64,000 nucleotides of DNA from an uncultured delta proteobacterium (GTDB lineage Bacteria; Desulfobacterota; Desulfobaccia; Desulfobaccales; 0-14-0-80-60-11). Under the pieces are notes generated by a model, which saw only the letters and a list, made by a program, of their open reading frames with translations, was not told the origin of the DNA and did no database searches. The stretch is from NCBI GenBank assembly GCA_963812015.1, contig CAWETI010000002.1, positions 576,001 to 640,000 of the forward strand, read 5' to 3'. The translations under genes and the position numbers were made by a program. Positions 14,616 to 64,000 of the stretch are shown piece after piece (the stretch's first letter is position 1; every line of letters starts with the position of its first letter).

Positions 14616-16811
14616 TCACCCCTTGAAGCGCCGCAGGCGCAAAGAATTGGTCACGACGGACACTGAGCTCATGGCCATGGCCGCGGCGGCCAGGGCCGGG
14701 TTGAGGGTCCAGCCCCAGAGGGGGTAGAAGGCCCCGGCGGCCACGGGGATGGCCACGATATTGTAGCAAAAGGCCCAGAAGAGGTTCTGGCGGATGATGC
14801 GCATCATCTGCCGGGAGAGTTGGATGGCCTGGGGGATGAGGTCCAGGTCGTCCCGGATGAGGGTCAAGTCCGCGGCCTCCAGGGCCACGTCGGCCCCGGT
14901 GCCCAGGGCGATGCCGACGTCGGCCTGGGCCAGGGCCGGGGCGTCGTTGATGCCGTCTCCCACCATGGCCACCACTTCACCATTGGCCTGGAGTTCCGCC
15001 ACTTTTTTGGCCTTATCGCCGGGGAGGACTTCGGCCAGCACGTCCTCGATGCCGATGCTGCCGGCCACCGCCATGGCGGTCATTTTATTATCGCCGCTCA
15101 AGAGGAGGATTTTCAGGCCCATGGCCTTCAAGGCGGCCACGGTCTGGGCGGCCCGGGGTTTGAGGGTATCGGCCGCGGCGATCACCCCCACGGGTTTACC
15201 GGCCACGGCCAGGAAGATGGCGGTCTTGCCCTCCCGGGACAGTTGGGCCTGGTGGGCGGCGAGGGGTTCGGCGGCGACCCCCTGTTGGGCGAGAAAGGCC
15301 AGGTTCCCCAGGAGCACTGCCTGGCCGTCGATCCTGGCCTCCACGCCCAGGCCCGGCACGGCCTGGAAGTCATGCACCTGGGGCAGGGCCAAATGTTGGG
15401 CTTGAGCGGCTCGGGTGACGGCTTCGGCCAGGGGGTGCTCGGATTTCTCCTCCAGGGCTGCGGCATGGGCCAGGACCGCCTCGGCGCTCCAGTGTTCCCA
15501 GGTATGGACGTCCGTTACCTGGGGGGCGCCCCGGGTGAGGGTGCCGGTTTTGTCAAAAACCACGGTGGTGAGGCGGTAGGCCCGCTCCAGGGGTTCGCCG
15601 CCCCGCATGAGGATGCCGAGCTCGGCGCCCCGGCCCGACCCCACCATGACCGCGGTGGGGGTGGCCAGGCCCATGGCGCAGGGGCAGGCGATGATGAGCA
15701 CCGCCACCATGCTGATGACGGCCCGGCTAAAGGTGGGCGGCGGCCCCCAATTGAGCCAGGCCAGGAAGGTTACTGCGGCCAGGCCCATGACCACCGGCAC
15801 GAAGATGGACGCCACTTTATCCACCAGGCGCTCGATGGGGGCTTTGCCGGTTTGGGCCTCTTCCACCAGGCGGATGATCTGGGAGAGCACCATGTCCTGG
15901 CCCACCCGGGTGGCCTTGAAGACCAGAAAGCCGCGTTGGTTCAAGGTGGCCCCCCAGACTTCGGCCCCCGGTTCCTTGGGCACGGGCATGCTTTCGCCGG
16001 TGAGCATGGACTCGTCGACGCTGCTCACGCCCTCGGCCACGACGCCGTCCACGGGGATCTTTTCCCCCGGCCGCACCACCACCAGGTCGCCCACCAGGAC
16101 TTCCGCCAAGGGGATTTCCTGCTCCTTATCGTCCCGGCGCACCCGGGCGGTGGGGGGGGCCAGGGCGAAAAGGCGGCGCAGGGCCTCGGAGGCCCGGCCC
16201 CGGGTGCGGGCTTCCAGCCAGCGGCCCAGGAGGATGAAGGTAATGATCATCACCGCGGTGTCGTAGTACACCGCCGGGGCATGGCCGGCCGCGGCCACGG
16301 TATCCGGGAAGAAGGTGACCCAGGCGGAGTAGAAATAGGCGGCGGAGGTCCCCAGGGCCACCAGGGTGTCCATGTTGGTGGACAGGTGTCGGGCGGCGTT
16401 CGCGGCCCCGGTAAAGAAGGAGGCGCCGGAGTAAAACATCACCGGGGTGGCGAAGACGAGCAGGATGAAGGCCAGGGCGCGGTGGCTGAGGCCGATGGCA
16501 TGGGTGACCGGGGGAATCATCAAGAGCCAGACCGGCAGGCTCAATGCCAGGGCCAGGAGGAAACGCCGGCGAAATTCCCGGACCTCGGCCTCCGGGGAGC
16601 GGGGGGCCCGCTGCTCCTTGGAGGAGGCTTCAACGATGTAGCCCGCATCGATGACCACCTGGGCCAGGGCCTCGGGGTTGGTAAGGCCAGGATTATATTT
16701 GACCTTGGCCTGGCGGGTGGCCAGGTTGACCGTGGCCAGTTCCACCCCGGGGGCGGCCGTCAGGGCCCGTTCCACCCGGGCCACGCAGGCGGCGCAGTGC
16801 ATGTCCCCCAC
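14616..16811 (-). CDS. copA: Cu(+)-type P1B-1 heavy-metal P-type ATPase
   Basis: MHCAAC HMA motif, [38 protein letters not shown] and MAMSS. True start uncertain (frame open to ~16868). Confidence 0.92.
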
Positions 16812-17107
16812 GGAGAGAATGATTTTTTCGGTCTGGGCGGAAATTGTCTTGATCTCCTCGGGTGCAGATTAGGCCTAGGTTATCCCCAGATGAACCAGAT
16901 ATTCCTTCATTATAGATAAATACGCCAAAGGGAAAAGGCAAGTGATCCGAAAGGATGACAAATTGCCGATACCCGGTTGGGGCTGTGGCGCCGTTCCGGC
17001 CACCTGGGAACCATCAAAAGATAGCCACCGAAAATTGCCGCATCGGGTCCGAGTCGTCAGGTCTTTCCCGTCTTGCTACCGGCCGCGGGAATTGATACTA
17101 TACCCCC

Positions 17108-18571
17108 ATGGGAAAGAGCTTAACACCGCGCTGGGGACGAAAGGTCAGCTACGTCTTCTGGGGCGCGGCAGGGATAGGTCTGTTGGCTGTCCTGGTGTGG
17201 CTGGCGGTGGGGCACCTGGACTTTGACGACCCCACGGTGGCGCTGAAGACCCCGGTGGAGGTGGTGGGGGCGAAAACCGCCCTGACGGTGGAGGCCGGAG
17301 ACCAGGACAGCGGCTTAAGAGAGGTCAAGGTCAGCTTGTCCCAGGGAGACCAGGGCAAGGTGGTGCTGGAGCGCACCTTTCCTCCGGGAGGGGGCCGGGG
17401 TGAGATCGTGGAGATCCCGGTGACCCTGGAGCCCAAGGCGTTAGGGTTTAAAGAGGGCAAAGCCATCCTCACCGTCGAGGCCCGGGACCGTTCCTGGCGG
17501 AACATGTTTCGGGGGCGCACCGCGAGCCTTACTCGGGAGGTGGTCATCGACCTGGTGCCCGTCACCTTGACCTACCAGGGGGTGAGCCATCTCCTCCATG
17601 CCGGGGGCACCGGGACCATCTGCTACCGCCTCAACAAAGAGGTCAAGGAGTCGGGGATTCTGGTGGGAGACCGGTTTTACCAGGGTTTTCCCAACCCCAA
17701 GGGGACCAAGGGGGATTACGTGGTGTTGTTCCCCGTGCCCCAGGAAGGACCGACGGGGTTCCGGGTGGATCTGGTGGCCCGACCGCCTCTGGGCACTGAA
17801 GTAAAGCAGGTGGTGTCCCTGCATGCCAAGCCGCGGCGGTGGCGCCACGATAGCATCAGCCTCTCGGACGGGTTTCTGCGCAAGGTGGCTTCCAGCTTTC
17901 CGGCGGCCAACCCCAACGACCTCCTGGGGACCTACCTGGAGGTCAACCGGAAGGTAAGGGGCCAGAATCACGAGTTGTTCCGGAAAGTCAGTTCCCAGAG
18001 CAGCCCGCAACCTTTGTGGGCCGGGGCCTTCCAGCGGTTTTTCGGCAAGCCCATGGCCCGCTTCGGGGACCGGCGCACCTACCTGTACCAGGGCAAAGCC
18101 GTGGACCAGCAGACGCACCTGGGCGAGGACCTGGCCTCCCTGATTAACAGCCAGGTGTACGCCGGCAATAACGGGGTGGTGGTCCTGGCTGAGCCCCTGG
18201 GGATTTACGGCCAGACGGTAATCCTGGATCATGGCCTGGGGGTCTTCTCCAGCTACAGCCACCTGAGCCAGATTGACGCCAAAGTGGGAGACAAAGTGGC
18301 CAAGGGCGCGGTCCTGGGCCGCACCGGCACCACGGGCCTGGCGGTGGGCGACCATCTCCATTTCGCCATCAACCTCCAGGGCGAATTTGTTGACCCCCTG
18401 GAATGGTGGGACCCTCACTGGCTCAAGGACCAGGTGGAAAAGGTTTGGGCCCAGGCCGGGGCCCCGGCGGCTGCGGCTGCGAGTCCCGACAAACCCACAT
18501 CGGAGCAGGGCAAGAAAAAGCCCGGCAAGGCAAGAGGCAAGGCCGCCAAAGGCAAAAAGCCGCACAACTAA
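17108..18571 (+). CDS. M23 family metallopeptidase with N-terminal membrane anchor
   Basis: HLGEDLA (HxxxD), YG..VILDHGLG..S.YSHL, GTTGLA.GDHLHF. Confidence 0.9.
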   Translation: MGKSLTPRWGRKVSYVFWGAAGIGLLAVLVWLAVGHLDFDDPTVALKTPVEVVGAKTALTVEAGDQDSGLREVKVSLSQGDQGKVVLERTFPPGGGRGEIVEIPVTLEPKALGFKEGKAILTVEARDRSWRNMFRGRTASLTREVVIDLVPVTLTYQGVSHLLHAGGTGTICYRLNKEVKESGILVGDRFYQGFPNPKGTKGDYVVLFPVPQEGPTGFRVDLVARPPLGTEVKQVVSLHAKPRRWRHDSISLSDGFLRKVASSFPAANPNDLLGTYLEVNRKVRGQNHELFRKVSSQSSPQPLWAGAFQRFFGKPMARFGDRRTYLYQGKAVDQQTHLGEDLASLINSQVYAGNNGVVVLAEPLGIYGQTVILDHGLGVFSSYSHLSQIDAKVGDKVAKGAVLGRTGTTGLAVGDHLHFAINLQGEFVDPLEWWDPHWLKDQVEKVWAQAGAPAAAAASPDKPTSEQGKKKPGKARGKAAKGKKPHN

Positions 18572-18853
18572 GGACCTGACTCAATCAGGGCCCCAGGACC
18601 GCGGGGGAGACGCACGGAGCATCCCGGGAGTCCTGGGGCCTTGCCGGTTATCTGGCCAGAAGGCCCCGTTGGGACTCCAAACGCCATGAAAAGGTGGTAA
18701 GCGGATCAGGATGGCCGCTCTGGGTGGGCAAGGCGCACCCGGAGAAAACTCCCCTGGCTGCAATCATGTTGACCGGGCCGTGATGGAACACGGCCCTCGG
18801 TGCGTCAGGGGCATTGCGCCCCTGCCGGCGTAACGATCTGCGAGAAGCTCGTC

Positions 18854-19462
18854 ATGATTATCAAGATCAATCCCGATAACCCCCAGGAGCGCCTGCTGCA
18901 CAAGGCCGTGGAAGTGCTCACCGGGGGCGGTCTCATCGCCTATCCCACCGACACCTGCTACGCCATCGGCTGCGACCTGTATAACCTCAAGGGTATCAGC
19001 CGGATATACCACCTCAAGCGCCAGCCCTTGAGCAAACCCTTCAGCATCATCTGCCAGGATTTAAAGAACATCAGCGAATACGCCCGGGTGGGCAATTACG
19101 CCTACAAAGCCATGAAGCGCCTCTTACCCGGCCCCTACACCTTCGTGCTACAGGCCTCCCGGCAGGTGCCCAAGATCCTCCAGACCAAGCGGCGCACCGT
19201 GGGCATCCGGGTCCCGGACCACCCCATCGCCCTGGGGTTGGTGGGTCTGTTAGGGCACCCCATCATCACCACCACCGCGGCCCTGCCGGATTCCCCGGTG
19301 GAGAGCGACCCCTACGAGATCGAGGACAAGTTCAAGCCGCACCTGGGCCTGGTCATCGATGGCGGCATCATCTTGCCGGAGCCGTCCAGCATCATTGCGA
19401 TGATCGACGACGTGCCCGAGGTCATCCGGGTGGGGAAGGGGGACGTGAGCGGGTTTGCGTGA
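18854..19462 (+). CDS. SUA5/YrdC/YciO family (threonylcarbamoyl-AMP synthase-like)
   Basis: IAYPTDTCYAIGC, LKR...KP, LPGPYTFVL, VGIRVPDHP. Confidence 0.9.
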   Translation: MIIKINPDNPQERLLHKAVEVLTGGGLIAYPTDTCYAIGCDLYNLKGISRIYHLKRQPLSKPFSIICQDLKNISEYARVGNYAYKAMKRLLPGPYTFVLQASRQVPKILQTKRRTVGIRVPDHPIALGLVGLLGHPIITTTAALPDSPVESDPYEIEDKFKPHLGLVIDGGIILPEPSSIIAMIDDVPEVIRVGKGDVSGFA

Positions 19463-19680
19463 AACGAGAGGGGTCAAAGGGAGAAGAGATGATGACTCCC
19501 ATTTCCCCTTATTTCCGGTAAATTCCTGCCGTCTCAAAATGTCCAGAAAATTCATCCTCGGCCCCCTGCGGCCAAGTTTTCCCCTTCGCCAGGTATGCTC
19601 TCATGGGTCTGCCCCAGGCAGGTCCCTGAGACAACTTGGCTATGCGGTTAAAAATTTTTCATGAAATCTCTCCGCCAAGT

Positions 19681-20733
19681 TTACTGGTCCTCCATCCACT
19701 TCCGCACCTGTTGGGCGCTTTCCGCATCTAACTCTTCCAACTGGCTCACCTGCCACTGATGGAGGATGAGTTCGAGGTCAATCCCCTTATCCAGGCAACC
19801 CAAACGAATCGCCTCCAGGTCCTCCGGGGTGGCGCCCCGGGGCAGGAGACTGGCAGGCGAAGAGGGAGTCACGGGGGCCTCGGCCTTGGGGGCCCGGCCC
19901 CTTTTACCTTTGTTTTCTTCTTTGGGGGTTGCTGCTTTGGGCCGCTCTTCCTTGGCCTCAGTGGCAGGGAATAACTGCTCCGCCGTGGCCTGGCCGTCTT
20001 TAAGTTGGGAAGCCATACCCCGCAAGCTGGCGATGTCCTCCGAGGCCCATTCATTTTTTGGTTTTCCTAAAACCGCCATCACGCGCGCTTCGCTGATACC
20101 GTAACCTGCCAGGAATTTCAGGGCCTTGTCCGTGGCCACGGCCAACCCTTCTTTGCTGATCCCCTGTAACACCGCTTCTTTGGCCCGTTCTTTAGCCTGG
20201 TCCGTGAGCCAGCGGGGGACCCCCGCCAAAACCACATTGCGGATGGCCCGGCTCTGAGCCGCCTGGAAGGTCATGTCCTCGGCCCGGTCGTCCTCCAGTT
20301 TCTTGAACACGCCCTTGCCTTTCTTTTTGCGAAAGACCCGGGAGACCGTAAAACCCCGCTCCAGATCCACGAAATGGGCATTGAACACCCATTCAGTCAG
20401 GGTCTCGTAGTATTCCACCGGCACCGCACAGTTGCTCCATTCCCGGGCCACGGCCATGGCCAAGCCGATGCTGGGGCCCTCAATTTTCTTGCCCCCCATG
20501 GGAAAGGAATAGTAGAAGGCATCCCCGGCGAATTCGGCTTCTCGCAGAACCGCGGCCACAACCTTATCCAGATTGCGGGGCCGCTGGACCGCCACCGCGG
20601 TGTGAAACTGGGTTTGGGAGCGCATCAGGGGGACAGGGGGATTGACGGTACCGGTCGGATAGGTTCCCGGTTCCCCGGTAAAAGGCTCCACCCCCGCAAA
20701 GGGGGGCGGGGCTATGTTTTGATTAGCTTCCAT
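19681..20733 (-). CDS. Phage-type hypothetical protein, putative single-strand annealing protein
   Basis: Start MEANQN follows AAGGAG, 5 nt after the nuclease stop. Core YSFPMGGKKIEGPSIGLA..AREW.N...AQSRAIRN, with a low-complexity linker and small C-terminal helical domain. Function inferred from context. Confidence 0.55.
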   Translation of the reverse strand: MEANQNIAPPPFAGVEPFTGEPGTYPTGTVNPPVPLMRSQTQFHTAVAVQRPRNLDKVVAAVLREAEFAGDAFYYSFPMGGKKIEGPSIGLAMAVAREWSNCAVPVEYYETLTEWVFNAHFVDLERGFTVSRVFRKKKGKGVFKKLEDDRAEDMTFQAAQSRAIRNVVLAGVPRWLTDQAKERAKEAVLQGISKEGLAVATDKALKFLAGYGISEARVMAVLGKPKNEWASEDIASLRGMASQLKDGQATAEQLFPATEAKEERPKAATPKEENKGKRGRAPKAEAPVTPSSPASLLPRGATPEDLEAIRLGCLDKGIDLELILHQWQVSQLEELDAESAQQVRKWMEDQ

Positions 20734-58548: not shown

Positions 58549-59736
58549 TTAAGTATTCCGCAAATATTTATTGTCCGGCGGCCGCCCATAATTGAGAGAC
58601 AAATCCCCTACCCGGGCCATGGCCTCATTCTCGCCGGCAAAGCGGGCTGGGAACTCCACCGACAGCCGCCGGGAAATCTCCCCCAGGGAGCTTTGGCCGT
58701 CCATCAACTCCAGGATGAACCGGTCGATGCGGCCATCCTCTGTCAGAACCGGCACATGGGTAGAGGCCCGTTGCTTCAGGCTAGCTGGAGATACGGGGGC
58801 GCCTAAAAAAGTGGATTGCCGGAACTCGGCCTTTAGCCGCCCCGGCTGGCTCTCGTCCAGGATGCGGGTATCCCAGCGCCAGAGATAATCATCTCCCACC
58901 AGGTTGGCGGCCAGGTCTACCGATACCACATCCCCCGCTTCCAAGTTCATGGGTTCCGGCCAGGGGAAAAAATATTTGGCATAAACCCCGGGGCTTTCGC
59001 CGGGGCGGTTGGAAAAGGATACGCCCGGAGCCAGAAGGGCGTCGAACCAGAGAACGATGCCGTGGGCCGTGCCGGCCCGGTCCGTGGTCCACGCTAATTC
59101 GCACCGGGCATCGGGCTCCGCCACCGTATAAAAATTTAAGGTCCACCAGCATTGGGCCGGGGCCAACATATCCTCCGGCGTTACCCGGGCCGAGTAACTT
59201 TGATTAATGGCCAGTGGCCACGCCGCCCGCAGATCCAGCCCGTAAACATCTTCCTTCCAGGCGGAGGTATGTTTCTCATACACCTCCGGCAATGCCACCA
59301 CCGCGGCCCAGAGGGTATCCTCTTGGGGAATCAAACGCCCTCCGGGAGCCAGAAAACGCTGCCGGGCATCCACAATAGTCGGGATTATTTGTTGAAAAAA
59401 AGGCAGCGACCCGTGCAGGTCGGAAACGATGACGTCCACCGGTTCCGGCAGGGTAATCCGGGTGGAAACGTCCTGGATGAAATGAATCCGCTCCGCGTAG
59501 CCGTTGGCGGCCGCCAGGTCCCGGGCCAGATCGAGGAGATCGCTGGGGTCGATGGCATAAACCCGGGCCGCGCCGCACTGGCAGGCCAACAGGGCGAACA
59601 TTCCGATGCCGGTGCCGATGTCCAGCACCACCGCCCCGGGGCTGACGGCTGAGCGCAGCGCCTCCCGGTAACCGGCCGTCCGCTTGGCATCGAGGATCAT
59701 CTGGCCGTAGCCATCGAGGGAATAAGTATGGGTCAT
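58549..59736 (-). CDS. PRMT-like SAM-dependent methyltransferase with C-terminal PqqD/RRE-like domain
   Basis: MILD..RT..Y..AL, VLDIGTGIG, GAARVYAID, VDVIVSD, ARQRFLAPGG.LIP, HG..LWFD; tail LTEDG...FILELMDGQSSLGEISRRL..EF. Confidence 0.75.
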   Translation of the reverse strand: MTHTYSLDGYGQMILDAKRTAGYREALRSAVSPGAVVLDIGTGIGMFALLACQCGAARVYAIDPSDLLDLARDLAAANGYAERIHFIQDVSTRITLPEPVDVIVSDLHGSLPFFQQIIPTIVDARQRFLAPGGRLIPQEDTLWAAVVALPEVYEKHTSAWKEDVYGLDLRAAWPLAINQSYSARVTPEDMLAPAQCWWTLNFYTVAEPDARCELAWTTDRAGTAHGIVLWFDALLAPGVSFSNRPGESPGVYAKYFFPWPEPMNLEAGDVVSVDLAANLVGDDYLWRWDTRILDESQPGRLKAEFRQSTFLGAPVSPASLKQRASTHVPVLTEDGRIDRFILELMDGQSSLGEISRRLSVEFPARFAGENEAMARVGDLSLNYGRPPDNKYLRNT

Positions 59737-60773
59737 ATTGACAGGCTTGATTTTTCCGCCCGATAGTCGCCGCCGGCTTGGAGATGGGAAAAATCCTCCA
59801 GGATGCTCTCGCAGAGTTGGTTCAGGTAGGCGGGTCCGGCCCGGGGAATCAGGCGGCGCACCGGCACCCGCTCCAGCAGGCGGCCCAGGACCTCGAACTC
59901 ACGGGCCCGCAGCTCCTTATCCAAAAACTTCGACCCATAGGTGTTGGCTATCAGCAGCAGCAGCCTTTCCTTCCCCGGGACCTCTTCCACCCGGGGACCG
60001 GCATCCTCCTGCCGCGCCCCCAGGATATAAATGGCCCCTAAGGGGAGAGGCCTAGACTGAAAGCAGTAGCCGGGGGCGGTAAGGTTGAGCCACCGCTTGT
60101 CCCATTCGGGATCCAAGGTATTATCCGAGATGACCGGAGGCAGGGCGGTGGGGGAGCCATAGAGATACACCACCGATTGGGGCCAGAGACAGACATTGGG
60201 GTCCCCCGGGAGCACCCAAAAGGTATCATCCTCCTCCTTAAGAACCGTGAGGTCATCGGTGAGCACCGGGTAGCCCAGGCGGGCAAAGGCCGCGGCGGTG
60301 GTGGATTTGCCGGCGCCCGGAAACCCCAGCACCGTTAGGGCGTGTCCTCCCGCGGCCACGGCGCTGCCGTGCAGACAGGGCGTCCCCCGCCAACGCAGGA
60401 GAATCCCCAGGACCGGGCCCAACAGGTAGGTGGAGAGATATTCCTGGGTCGCGCCTTCGGGCCCCGAGACCCAAAGACGCGACCCCGCAGAGTCCATGAC
60501 GAACTGGCAGCCGTCGCTGTATCTCAGCCGGAAGTATCGGCCTCCGGCCACCTGCCAGGCTCTATAGACGGGTTCGCCGCCCTGGTCATCCTCGAAGCCG
60601 GTTTGCCACAATTCCTGGGGCATCTCCAGGAACCGGCGCCACCATTCCGCCGTGCCCTCATGGCATATTTCCACATCTACCGCCGCTGGCTCCGCCTGGG
60701 CCACTAGACCGGGAATAGGCCGGTCGGACCTTAGCCGCAAGCCGAAGATGTTATAAAACAAAGACGCAACCAT
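59733..60773 (-). CDS. HPr kinase-like Ser/Thr kinase (lasso-cluster type)
   Basis: YNIFGLRLRSD, LHGSAV, Walker A GFPGAGKST, LTDD; 4-nt overlap with the methyltransferase. Confidence 0.85.
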   Translation of the reverse strand: MVASLFYNIFGLRLRSDRPIPGLVAQAEPAAVDVEICHEGTAEWWRRFLEMPQELWQTGFEDDQGGEPVYRAWQVAGGRYFRLRYSDGCQFVMDSAGSRLWVSGPEGATQEYLSTYLLGPVLGILLRWRGTPCLHGSAVAAGGHALTVLGFPGAGKSTTAAAFARLGYPVLTDDLTVLKEEDDTFWVLPGDPNVCLWPQSVVYLYGSPTALPPVISDNTLDPEWDKRWLNLTAPGYCFQSRPLPLGAIYILGARQEDAGPRVEEVPGKERLLLLIANTYGSKFLDKELRAREFEVLGRLLERVPVRRLIPRAGPAYLNQLCESILEDFSHLQAGGDYRAEKSSLSI

Positions 60774-60802: not shown

Positions 60803-60949
60803 CTAAGCTGCAGTTTTATTACGACCAGTCCAACCGCCAGTGTCAGTATTACCATTTCTACCTGTAGCCATGGTAATCTGCTTGACATTGCCGTAATCCA
60901 TCACCTGGGGGGGGTGATAAGCCAGCCGTTCTTTTTTCGTGGATTTCAT
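60803..60949 (-). CDS. Lasso peptide precursor, 48 aa (not in ORF track)
   Basis: MKSTKKERLAYHPPQVMDYGNVKQITM-ATGRNGNTDTGGWTGRNKTAA. RBS AGGAGG lies 6 nt upstream. Leader has YxxP, G and Thr at -2; core has Ala1 and Asp9. Confidence 0.88.
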   Translation of the reverse strand: MKSTKKERLAYHPPQVMDYGNVKQITMATGRNGNTDTGGWTGRNKTAA

Positions 60950-61157
60950 GATGGTCCTCCTGTCGTGACATGATTTTGGGGTTTAGTCCTGTGAGTTGAT
61001 ATGTTAACATTCCGCATCTGCCGTAAAATTTATGATGATTTCACGGGCCAGATGAAAAAAACCTCTTCCCGAGTTTAACCCCCCAAAGCCTCTCCTTTTT
61101 ATTACCTAATTGCCTTGAAAAAAGCAAGTCTTAATGGTGGTGGCTGTTATCCTAAGT

Positions 61158-63002
61158 TTAGGAGCGAATCACTGATTGCAGAAATTCCTCCAGACCCTTG
61201 ATGCAAGTCATATCGCGGTAGAGCCTGCCCTTAGTTGCTGCAATTTTCTGGCTTATTTGCTCCCGCCAGCTCTCGTCCAGGGCAAGACGCGCGGCCACCG
61301 CCACGTATTCTTCCAAGCTGGTGACGATGGTCTCCGTGACGCCCATCATGGTCAAAAAAGCCATACTGTGCCTTCCCCGCATAAGATTCCCGGGCAGCGT
61401 AACCACGGGCAGGTCACAGGCAAGGGCTTCTAAGGTGGTGTTGCCTCCGGACCATCCAATGCTGTCCAGGAAGATGTCGGACAGGCAATTCAGGGCGTGA
61501 TATTGCGTTGAATCCAGCCGCGGTAAAAGGGTAACATAATCTTCGGAATTTAAGCCATAATTCCCGAATGCCTGATGCAGACGCCGCTGAAATTGGTTAT
61601 TTACGAAAACCGAGTCTCCTTGAATAAAGGCGAATTGACAGTTGCCTACTGCTTTGGCGAGTTGCGGGAAGACGGCATCGTATTGCGGCAGATACTTGAA
61701 TAGGGACTGTGGGCAAAAAAATAAAATACCATTCGACTTAAGGTCGAAACTGGCCCGGCTCAGCCCAGTCTCCGGGAATTCCCGGGGGCTGTAAAATGTG
61801 GAGAGATTGGGCAATTTCACCAGTTTTTCGGTGTAATGCGCTTCAGCTCCCGGAGGCTCCATCAGCTCGCTACTCAGATAGTAGTCCATGGTAGGTAAGC
61901 CTGAGGTAACCGGGTGGCCCCAGGACACGCACTGGATAGGCGCAAGCTTTAATGAAGCCAGCCTGAGAGTCAGGTAATCCATTCCCACTTCAGGATAGAT
62001 CAATATGTGCAGCCGGTCCCCGCGGATCATCCGTGCCAGTTTTGGTAATGAAAAAACGTCTTCCACCAGGCGGACAAAACTCTGCCTCGCCTGCCCGGTT
62101 TCATTGTCCTTTCTAGTTCCTGTGTGGTAGCCGTATAGCTGAAACCGCCGTTTATCTAAATTCTCCCCCCAACCCTTTGCGAGAATCTTCCAAACGGAGT
62201 GTTCCCATAAGAAACCTGAGACAATCCCGACTCGGCAAGGTTCGACCGGATTGGAGGGCGGCATCGAAGGGGCTTGGGCCCATTTCGGGTATCTGGCTGC
62301 CTGAATGCGACAAACCAATTTACCATAGAGACTCTGAAGATCGCGGTCATTGAGTCCCTGATATGCCAAGTAAAAAGGAAAGCAACTCCCCACAGCCTGG
62401 GCCGCCTCCTTAATCTCGGCCGAACTATCTAGCCTGATGGTTTGGCACAGATGCTCCAGTTCCTTTTGATAGCATCTCCGGGTTTGCGCAATCTCGCTCG
62501 CCTGACCGTAAAGAATAGGAGTTTGAGCTATACAAAGATTGAGCCGGGCTCTCACCGAGTCAGGTTTTATAGCCAGGGCCTTTTTTAAACAGTCGAGTGC
62601 CTCTTGCTGTTCTCCTAGGTTAGAGAGAATTGCCCCCAATCTATTGTAATGCTTGGCATTATGAGGATCAAGTTCTATCGCCTTTCTATAGCAAGCGATG
62701 GATAAGCTGGCTAACTTTGGATCTTCGGTTGCCAAAAGAGCCTCCCCTAGTTTACAGTGGGCAGAAACCTTCTTCGGTTTAATTTTAATAGCTTGGCTAT
62801 AACAACGCATAGCCTCAGATAATTTTGCCAGCTCCATTAAAACATCGCCCAGACGAACAAAGGTATCATAGGTTGGTTCTATTTCAATTACTTCGCGGTA
62901 AGTTTTCTCAGCTTCTCGAAAGTTTCCGGATCGGCAGTCTTGCAGAGCTTTTTTTAATCTTTCTCTTATATCAGGTGATAGTTTCCTAATTTCGTGGGAC
63001 AT
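61158..63002 (-). CDS. TPR-containing GT41 family glycosyltransferase (OGT/SPINDLY-like)
   Basis: N-terminal TPRs; RVGIVS..L.EHSV, LAPIQCVSWGHPVTSGLPTMDYYLS, YTEKLVKLP, FKY.P, DIFLDS..WSGGNTTLEAL...LPVVT. Confidence 0.87.
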   Translation of the reverse strand: MSHEIRKLSPDIRERLKKALQDCRSGNFREAEKTYREVIEIEPTYDTFVRLGDVLMELAKLSEAMRCYSQAIKIKPKKVSAHCKLGEALLATEDPKLASLSIACYRKAIELDPHNAKHYNRLGAILSNLGEQQEALDCLKKALAIKPDSVRARLNLCIAQTPILYGQASEIAQTRRCYQKELEHLCQTIRLDSSAEIKEAAQAVGSCFPFYLAYQGLNDRDLQSLYGKLVCRIQAARYPKWAQAPSMPPSNPVEPCRVGIVSGFLWEHSVWKILAKGWGENLDKRRFQLYGYHTGTRKDNETGQARQSFVRLVEDVFSLPKLARMIRGDRLHILIYPEVGMDYLTLRLASLKLAPIQCVSWGHPVTSGLPTMDYYLSSELMEPPGAEAHYTEKLVKLPNLSTFYSPREFPETGLSRASFDLKSNGILFFCPQSLFKYLPQYDAVFPQLAKAVGNCQFAFIQGDSVFVNNQFQRRLHQAFGNYGLNSEDYVTLLPRLDSTQYHALNCLSDIFLDSIGWSGGNTTLEALACDLPVVTLPGNLMRGRHSMAFLTMMGVTETIVTSLEEYVAVAARLALDESWREQISQKIAATKGRLYRDMTCIKGLEEFLQSVIRS

Positions 63003-63116: not shown

Positions 63117-63998
63117 TCAACACTCAAATTTTGCCAGCCAGTAATTGAGGCTTAAGGGGCGCAGGTTTATCCACAGCCGACCCGGGTCGGTCTCGGTCGT
63201 CGCCGGGGGAACCGCGGCGCGCCGGACATAGGCGGCCAGCCCGTCGCATGGCTCAAAGTTATCCAGCCACCGGGAATCGGGGCGGCGGACCAGGGCCAGT
63301 TCGGGATGGTCGACCATGGGCGTTTTGGGACGGCGGCGGATAAGATCCGGCAGACGCTCCTTGGCCAGTTCCCGGAGCATGATCTTATCCACGCACCAGG
63401 GCAGTGGCGGCAGGCTCAGGGCGTAGGTGAGAAGCCGCACATCCAGCAGGGGATGGCGAAACTCCAGCGGCCCCCCCATAACCCCGGCGTCATACTCCAT
63501 TTCGAAACACCCTTGCAAAAAAGACCCGGCCAGAAAGGCGCAGGCTTCGGGGCGCACCGGGGGCTGGGGCGCCGACCTTCGCTTGAAAAGTTGCCACCGG
63601 GCAGGCAGGTCCAGCCGGGCGCTCAGGTCCGGGTCAAGCCACTGGGGGAACCCGTCCTCAGGCTGGCTCCGGCTGTTGCGAGTGCGCCAGCGATCCAGGG
63701 CGGTCCTGAAACCAACTTGCGGCATATGGCCGTAAAGGAAGAGACTGCGCCCCATTCCCGTTACCAGTGGGGCCAGATGCAGGCTCCGGGCCAACTTGTA
63801 GATATACGATTTGGAGGGGTAAAGAATCTCGTCGCCGCCATGGCCGGTGAGGACTACCCGGCTGTGGATAGCGGCCAGCTTGATCATGTCCAACCCGGCT
63901 GCTGCTCCACGGGGATCGTGGCAGGGCTCCGGTTCGCTCAGGTCGGCCTGGCGCTCAAACAGAGCATAATCATCCTGGGGCAGAAACTCGATAGGGAC
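63117..63998 (-). CDS. Asparagine-synthetase-like lasso cyclase, C-terminal part (5' end outside window)
   Basis: Frame is open to the window edge; VLTGHGGDE, EFRHPLLDVRL, DK.MLRE...LPD.IRRRPKTP; located in a cluster with a lasso precursor. Confidence 0.8.
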   Translation of the reverse strand, partial: VPIEFLPQDDYALFERQADLSEPEPCHDPRGAAAGLDMIKLAAIHSRVVLTGHGGDEILYPSKSYIYKLARSLHLAPLVTGMGRSLFLYGHMPQVGFRTALDRWRTRNSRSQPEDGFPQWLDPDLSARLDLPARWQLFKRRSAPQPPVRPEACAFLAGSFLQGCFEMEYDAGVMGGPLEFRHPLLDVRLLTYALSLPPLPWCVDKIMLRELAKERLPDLIRRRPKTPMVDHPELALVRRPDSRWLDNFEPCDGLAAYVRRAAVPPATTETDPGRLWINLRPLSLNYWLAKFEC

Positions 63999-64000
63999 TT

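Follow-up and report, generated by a model that had tools for sequence, protein, structure and literature searches.

A predicted lasso peptide precursor with a conserved [KR]-Thr tail motif beside an HprK-like kinase and a PRMT-fold methyltransferase

A lasso precursor gene is by itself an ordinary finding, as thousands have been predicted. The closest described systems are those that include a lasso kinase. According to the portions of the cited papers that were consulted, characterised lasso kinases modify the precursor while it is still linear. Some use a terminal Ser (PMC9266682, PMC8498205), which these tail kinases require (PMC8498205), and others use Ser3 (PMC10368454, PMC13381572). Thr is accepted by BsfK (PMC10368454) but rejected by LppK (PMC13381572). 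A His-Lys-Asp-Asp kinase motif has been named in the same literature (PMC9266682). The lasso leader consensus considered here was taken from two of these reports (PMC13381572, PMC10368454), the first of which gives the leader motif as [Y/W]xxPx[L/V/I/F/A]. The pairing of an arginase with an N-methyltransferase is known from enteropeptin and its N-methylornithine (PMC12703449, PMC9811515, as far as the consulted parts go).

The locus analyzed here belongs to an uncultured delta proteobacterium. The window, namely the whole stretch of 64,000 nucleotides that was analyzed, corresponds to G000:C2:576001-640000, and genes lying past its end are given in C2 coordinates (Table 1). Read along the minus strand, the gene order is B1, B2, arginase-like protein, cyclase, TPR-GT41 glycosyltransferase, precursor, kinase, methyltransferase, a NusG-family gene, Wza, Wzc and the rest of a polysaccharide locus. 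The lasso cluster is complete, with B1, B2 and cyclase genes beside the precursor. The cyclase matches Asn_synthase with 111 bits, while its best NCBIfam match, NF033535, stays below the cut-off (362 of 525 bits). Further out than the nucleotidyltransferase are a carbamoyltransferase, a transposase and an ABC transporter, the latter about 14 kb upstream. The carbamoyltransferase has a TPR tail and adjoins the transposase upstream of the cluster (G000:C2:645842-648064). It was considered as a core part of the cluster and rejected, being found in only 2 of 33 related loci.

Table 1 Features of the lasso locus and its surroundings. Positions are those of the window unless marked C2.
Feature	Position	Strand	Basis or detail
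Lasso precursor gene A	60803..60949	-	48 aa + stop; exact translation
Shine-Dalgarno AGGAGG	60956..60961	-	ATG begins 6 nt downstream
Leader, 27 aa, Y(-17)xxP(-14)xV(-12), G(-8), T(-2)	60869..60949	-	sequence; positions tallied over 73 precursors
Predicted ring Ala1-Asp9	60842..60868	-	Asp9 is the sole acidic core residue
Lys18-Thr19, family-conserved tail motif, predicted modification site	60812..60817	-	homolog tallies
HprK-like kinase, 346 aa, H135/K156/D173/D174 intact	59733..60773	-	starts 29 nt past precursor stop
PRMT-fold methyltransferase, 395 aa, altered active site, helical tail weakly PqqD-like	58549..59736	-	4-nt overlap with kinase stop
TPR + GT41 (SPINDLY/OGT-like) glycosyltransferase, 614 aa, accessory	61158..63002	-	49.6% GC amid 61-63% GC genes
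Lasso cyclase C, 3' part in window	63117..64000	-	whole gene 610 aa, G000:C2:639117-640949
Arginase-like TPR protein	C2:640946-642538	-	NF052474 47 of 350 bits; metal motifs intact
B2 peptidase	C2:642585-643088	-	NF033537 81 bits, over cut-off
B1 PqqD/RRE, 94 aa	C2:643033-643317	-	PF05402 48.8 bits, over cut-off
Nucleotidyltransferase, beyond B1	C2:643535-644683	+	opposite strand to cluster
Wzx/Wzy-type polysaccharide locus, mostly co-directional, ~34 kb	24236-58286	-	downstream of cluster

The initial annotation had described a hidden lasso precursor on the minus strand. Its translation was reproduced exactly, and the ribosome-binding site was found where it had been placed. The ORF is hidden only with respect to the ORF cut-off of that scan, as the exact protein is already present in the NCBI and ENA gene calls. 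Tyr(-17), Pro(-14), Gly(-8) and Thr(-2), the lasso pattern that had been read in the leader, are all in place, and the leader agrees with the consensus of YxxPx[L/V/I/F/A] at -17 to -12 together with Thr(-2). Val had been said to stand where Leu is usual; Leu is indeed the common residue (59 of 73 precursors, against 6 of 73 with Val), but Val(-12) lies within the published motif. Among the 15,872 genome ORFs with an ATG start and 30-90 aa, the full lasso pattern, which was written with the precursor sequence already in view, is found only once, in the precursor ORF itself; a looser pattern yielded six ORFs, the precursor included. The precursor scored below the cut-offs of the NCBIfam lasso_cyano and lasso_leader_L3 models, with 21.5 of 33 bits for NF033528 and 15.7 of 19 bits for NF033521. 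The Pfam profile search gave no match for it, and a scan for promoters and terminators gave no signal above shuffled sequences.

A lack of conservation in syntenic clusters had been named as grounds for discarding the gene. Our comparison drew on at least 79 genome loci and at least 80 metagenome loci, plus loci from relatives, and relatives of the methyltransferase gave 1,547 matches among the 8,000 candidates scored. In the 33 listed loci of at least 8 kb that have a close methyltransferase (our own included), a kinase was found in 31, a cyclase in 30, a precursor in 30, B1 in 29, B2 in 27 and a nucleotidyltransferase in 26. The precursor is thus conserved in related loci, and this objection falls. 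Protein searches with the precursor gave 9 and 23 hits, from which the repeat artefacts P0131, P0132, P0138 and P0141, the query and its 98% copy were left out, leaving 26 homologs for the counts below. The leader of the closest precursors is almost letter-for-letter identical to the one examined here. When leader codons were compared with those of four syntenic homologs, third positions were the most frequent site of change, with ratios of synonymous to non-synonymous codons of 2:1, 4:4, 5:1 and 3:5, and purine-rich sites lie ahead of the homologous precursor starts in L108, L004 and L169. The proposed cleavage after Met(-1) is in keeping with the B1, B2 and cyclase genes just upstream and with homologous precursors in the same slot. 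We consider the ORF to be almost certainly a lasso precursor. The subfamily occurs in Acidobacteriota, Thermodesulfobacteriota, Gemmatimonadota, Binatota and metagenomes. In six of the precursors (P0126, P0133, P0134, P0137, P0144 and P0147), the YxxP leader motif is duplicated in tandem.

The core of 21 residues contains no Cys and a single acidic residue, Asp9, which is followed by a 12-residue tail. This agrees with the Ala1-Asp9 ring that had been predicted, and the position is kept, the first acidic residue being the ninth in 22 of 26 homologs from the protein searches and in 31 of 41 cores from the listed loci. The calculated monoisotopic mass of the cyclic core is 2086.99 Da. The assignment to class II likewise stands, Cys being found in 0 of 34 cores of the kinase clade defined below. 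The proposed plugs, Trp13, Arg16 and Lys18, fared differently. A basic residue at the place of Lys18 is found family-wide, and Lys18 is the one plug candidate retained across the family; each of the 34 kinase-clade tails contains Lys or Arg. Arg16 is replaced by His in P0122, the copy that is 98% identical. Trp13 is a minority state: 5 of 26 homologs have an aromatic residue three to four places past the ring Asp, and one of the 34 clade tails has Trp (Trp at the same place also occurs in P0134 and P0137). As the tail is Gly-rich and 25 of the 34 family tails have no aromatic residue (9 have one), a stable thread does not appear assured. Moreover, known lasso structures have plugs of 14-17 residue types and loops of 3-20 residues in the consulted part of the source (PMC12214591), so that plugs cannot be placed from sequence alone. 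Thr-Gly-Arg-Asn, which occurs twice in the core, was considered as a shared recognition motif and rejected, as the repeat is not conserved among homologs. The most conserved core feature after Asp9 is the terminal [KR]-Thr motif, which the first reading of the core had overlooked.

The tail motif was examined against the kinases. The kinase clade was defined as kinases scoring at least 190 bits against the HprK-like neighbour, a cut-off set after the scores had been seen, and its 32 rows were grouped with an SH-aLRT of 100 in a quick tree. Its 34 cores, which include two loci with two cores each, are related to one another, and the shuffle tests given here therefore overstate significance. Ser or Thr lies within the last three residues in all 34 clade cores (shuffle mean 17.9, maximum 28), and [KR][TS] within the last six residues in 29 (shuffle mean 5.1, maximum 13), as KT in 19, RT in 5, KS in 4 and RS in 1; beside other kinases, it is found in 5 of 34 cores. 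Among the homologs from protein searches, [KR][ST] lies near the end in 21 of 26 (shuffle mean 3.9, maximum 11). A terminal Ser is rare (3 of 34 clade cores and 1 of 26 homologs).

The His-Lys-Asp-Asp residues are kept in 72, 72, 64 and 71 of 72 kinases, respectively, and the neighbouring kinase carries them as H135, K156, D173 and D174, as do paeninodin-type kinases; the mapping of the published motif onto these four residues is our own putative assignment. The core itself ends in Lys-Thr-Ala-Ala, with Ala where paeninodin-type substrates have a C-terminal Ser. It also differs from the Bsf type, which has Ser/Thr at core position 3 and Ile/Val(-2), in having Gly3 and Thr(-2). Phosphorylation of the ring as in BsfA was considered and rejected, as position 3 is Gly here and is Ser or Thr in only 4 of 34 clade cores. 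Since the characterised kinases act at a terminal Ser or at Ser3, and since Thr is accepted by BsfK and rejected by LppK, we regard Thr19 as the likely and best candidate site of phosphorylation rather than as an assigned one.

Discordant loci bear on what the motif follows. The motif is kept in two loci (L186 and L150) with a clade kinase but no close methyltransferase, and is found in 3 of 7 loci where the methyltransferase is close and the kinase distant. In the first of these, from genome G046, the kinase is 77% identical to ours, the [KR][TS] motif is kept and no methyltransferase match was found. We lean weakly, on these loci, to tying the tail motif to the kinase. The motif also occurs beside kinases outside the clade (L013, L019, L118), and it may thus follow the precursor lineage instead. 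In the G046 cluster (L186:9399-10868, 15776-19998), a radical SAM gene additionally separates B2 from the cyclase, two GT41 genes are present, and the first acid of the core is at position 11.

PRMTs are marked by a double-E loop and a THW loop; the second Glu binds arginine, and PRMT1 needs it. The methyltransferase of our cluster has the PRMT fold, a Rossmann domain with a beta-barrel (profile match to PRMT1 with E ~1e-44; Foldseek TM 0.69 for the predicted structure), with Asp106 and Gln115 in the double-E loop and GVY in place of THW. Of 53 close copies linked to lasso clusters, all have Asp or Glu as the first double-E residue, 3 keep the second Glu, none has the THW His and Trp (Ile/Val and Tyr mostly taking their places), and 48 have Arg or His at the place of the PRMT Met. 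Among the 41 listed cores beside the methyltransferase, Lys is present in 38 and Arg in 22, Arg being absent from 19. As our enzyme has neither this second Glu nor THW, Lys18 (or the phosphate) appears a likelier methyl target than Arg. Lys18 (or an ornithine) beside phospho-Thr would be the likeliest target, with O-methylation of the phosphate as its main rival. Single cores vary, and those of L021 and L023 speak against this choice: one (L021, 13 kb) has Arg-Thr beside a close methyltransferase with no arginase in view, another (G102) has Arg and no Lys, and a third (L023) has neither.

The last 80 residues of the methyltransferase are only helical in the predicted model, whereas PqqD has three strands and three helices. 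Matches between this tail and PqqD are weak: hhalign to B1 gave about 1%, sub-threshold PqqD matches were seen in 14 of 41, and PqqD was the top Foldseek match, but with E 0.37 and TM 0.43. A fusion of the methyltransferase to an RRE, considered on account of a weak PqqD match, was not confirmed by these comparisons. Relatives of the enzyme are found in other settings. In sister lasso clusters (L032, L033, L036, L046, L051, L066, L142, L149), the cores terminate in Cys-Leu, which frequently follows a stretch rich in Met, and the methyltransferase clade mostly has Arg-Arg replacing the THW loop. L011 and L017 have a second, distant PRMT-like gene in the lasso cluster, with both Glu kept and an HW or CW loop. 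Distant PRMT-like genes outside lasso clusters (L053, L058, L059, L062, L139, L172 and others) have the catalytic Glu in 37 of 43 at each position and mostly an HW/SW loop, and are candidate true prokaryotic arginine methyltransferases.

The remaining tailoring genes are less general. An arginase-like gene is present in 3 of 33 long listed loci. Where an intact arginase accompanies a known core, that core contains Arg (4 of 4 clusters), and the one degraded arginase-like remnant, located between the B2 and cyclase genes, goes with a core lacking Arg (L188:4578-5099, G021); these numbers are small. The GT41 enzyme matches SPINDLY/OGT (E ~1e-51) and scores 45.9 of 1000 bits against the NCBIfam NGT model, which sets it apart from the HMW1C/NGT type. 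Of 83 genomes of the class, two contain close copies, in each case within a cluster of this type, and the enzyme could serve the lasso peptide or the polysaccharide locus. An Asn-[KR]-Thr sequon is present in both GT41 clusters with a known core and in 8 of 26 homologs, mostly of unknown context, and also in loci with no GT41 in view. N-glycosylation at Asn17 is not supported, as the enzyme is SPINDLY/OGT-like and the sequon is not tied to GT41. The main text of a paper on lasso glycosyltransferases, in the portion consulted, makes no mention of GT41 or OGT (PMC11912497). The polysaccharide locus has about 49-50% GC, a NusG/RfaH-like gene at its head and three interrupting transposase genes. 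At least two EPS-type hits flank 5 of 17 long loci of the kinase clade, 6 of 23 lasso loci outside it and 2 of 43 non-lasso loci. This is only a partial trend, and a family-wide EPS link was rejected.

When these observations are combined, we find it reasonably probable that the precursor matures into a class II lasso peptide of 21 residues whose ring is closed between Ala1 and Asp9, with Thr19 likely phosphorylated and the tail or Lys18 probably methylated, the exact methyl site being held with less confidence. The order of steps given here is modelled on the pathways of paeninodin, pseudomycoidin and Bsf. First, B1 would bind the YxxPxV leader, and the kinase would, by analogy, likely phosphorylate Thr19 on the linear precursor. 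That the coupled methyltransferase acts on the lasso peptide, on the same tail, is proposed with good confidence. If it does, the amine of Lys18 or of an ornithine would be the leading target, though at somewhat less than even chances; the phosphate oxygen is an unlikely target, and Arg and the C-terminal carboxyl are each less likely still. The methyltransferase would perhaps read the phosphate through the His/Arg that replaces the PRMT Met. Conversion of Arg4 and/or Arg16 to ornithine by the arginase-like protein seems an even bet. B2 would then cut after Met(-1), and C would close the ring. Sugar addition is possible by the nucleotidyltransferase, at rather under even odds, and is doubtful for GT41. 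Export may be through the ABC transporter upstream, and Lys18 with its modified neighbour would be the best candidate for a lock below the ring. As to its role, the peptide might be exported in decorated form and produced alongside the exopolysaccharide of the downstream locus, a weak and tentative suggestion. Equally tentative is the broader idea of an unstudied, widespread lasso subfamily with a histone-like tandem tail mark, in which a basophilic kinase would act on the Thr of [KR]-Thr and a PRMT-fold enzyme with a rewired, cationic pocket would read the phosphate and methylate either the Lys/ornithine next to it or the phosphate itself, which would supply the steric lock for a lasso otherwise poor in plugs; the copy here would add ornithine and an OGT-like sugar.

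Other explanations should be considered when these results are interpreted. Kinase and methyltransferase might work in series on one group, such that phospho-Thr19 is O-methylated into a methyl-phosphate cap, or the C-terminal carboxyl might be methylated, as by StspM. The pocket, without the second Glu and with Arg/His gained in 48 of 53, is compatible with this, as are the Arg gained in the THW loop instead by the sister clade, the 4-nt overlap of the two genes and the interchange of Lys and Arg before Thr/Ser tallied above. However, the first double-E acid, kept as Asp/Glu in 53 of 53, suits an amine, the Thr lies one to three residues from the end, so that a carboxyl anchor is not fixed, and no precedent was found in the literature searched; we thus judge this reading unlikely, while ranking it first among the alternatives. 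Rather less likely is a branched-cyclic product that is not stably threaded; bearing phosphate and sugar, it would act as a carrier linked to the exopolysaccharide pathway. The small, Gly-rich tails, with aromatics in 9 of 34, and the 34 kb of mostly co-directional polysaccharide genes downstream would fit such a carrier, and lasso/LPP and EPS genes are jointly up-regulated in Paenibacillus (PMC13381572, in the part consulted). Against it, Lys or Arg is present in every clade tail, the range of residue types among known plugs is broad (14-17; PMC12214591), and the EPS link holds for a minority of loci.

Lower again we place a true arginine/ornithine methyltransferase that modifies both Thr-Gly-Arg-Asn repeats, possibly after the arginase, in the manner of enteropeptin N-methylornithine. 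The full PRMT fold, the doubled repeat, the G102 core with Arg and no Lys, the enteropeptin precedent (PMC12703449, PMC9811515, in the parts consulted) and the presence of arginase and methyltransferase together in 5 of 7 arginase loci (several of them retrieved using the methyltransferase as bait) all speak for it. Nonetheless, 19 of 41 family cores have no Arg, Arg16 is His in P0122, an arginase accompanies only 3 of 33 long listed loci, and the second Glu and THW are lost. Finally, a chance ORF or silent relic, to which the sub-cut-off lasso HMM matches and the transposases flanking the region might point, is very improbable and largely refuted by the syntenic homologs, in which the leader is conserved and codons change at third positions, and by core enzymes that are intact with their motifs. 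Our preferred reading remains a lasso peptide that is predicted to be phosphorylated at Thr19 and methylated in the same tail.

Related precursors have been catalogued before. In the portion of the LassoPred table consulted, LP_WP_193981935_1 (a cyanobacterial entry), LP_PYO53038 and LP_RPH81974_1 have the same leader type as ours and an Asp9 ring, with a Lys-Thr tail in the first two and a Cys-Leu tail in the third, and are given with neither family name nor tailoring; a term search of the table for the leader motif YGNVK gave no match. As unnamed precursors of both tail types are listed, the family is already catalogued as a prediction. In the open-access literature searched, no PRMT-fold methyltransferase, arginase, OGT-like enzyme or tail kinase for [KR]-Thr was found in connection with any lasso peptide, although the supplements of the original RODEO, paeninodin and pseudomycoidin reports may describe such clusters. 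What appears new is the near-terminal [KR]-Thr tail hotspot, together with a coupled PRMT-fold methyltransferase as the predicted decoration of a phosphorylated-type lasso. The precursor is thereby a candidate substrate of an enzyme set with no characterised example in the literature searched, consisting of a lasso kinase clade predicted to act on a near-terminal Thr and a PRMT-fold family whose lasso-linked copies lost arginine-binding residues. With a substrate of 48 residues and a single predicted hotspot of two, the target of the PRMT-fold enzyme becomes directly testable, which is relevant to the way in which this scaffold shifts its substrate.

Compared with the known systems, the cluster is closest in its split B1/B2, cyclase, HprK-like kinase with His-Lys-Asp-Asp and class II core to those of paeninodin, ThcoK and SyanK (PMC9266682, PMC8498205, in the portions consulted). 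Those kinases use a C-terminal Ser, whereas the end here is Lys-Thr-Ala-Ala and the family has a near-terminal Thr after Lys/Arg, and the PRMT-fold methyltransferase is extra. Pseudomycoidin (PsmK and PsmN) shares the kinase and nucleotidyltransferase, with predicted phospho-glycosylation, but has a terminal Ser; the nucleotidyltransferase here lies on the opposite strand, and methyltransferase, arginase-like and GT41 genes are added. The Bsf cluster of Bradymonas sediminis shares the kinase, nucleotidyltransferase, ABC transporter and a YxxPxL motif at -17 to -12 (PMC10368454, as far as consulted), yet BsfK modifies ring Ser3 behind a leader with Ile(-2), while our precursor has Gly3, the canonical Thr(-2) and its conserved hydroxyl in the tail. 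Methylated lassos resemble it in their SAM-dependent tailoring, which is performed by an O-methyltransferase for lassomycin/StspM and by PIMT homologs for cellulonodin-2 and lihuanodin, in contrast to the two-domain PRMT fold found here. This fold and its SAM-binding motifs are those of the eukaryotic PRMT1, PRMT2 and Hmt1, from which the lasso-linked enzyme departs in having Gln for the second double-E Glu, GVY for THW, His for Met and an extra helical tail of 80 residues.
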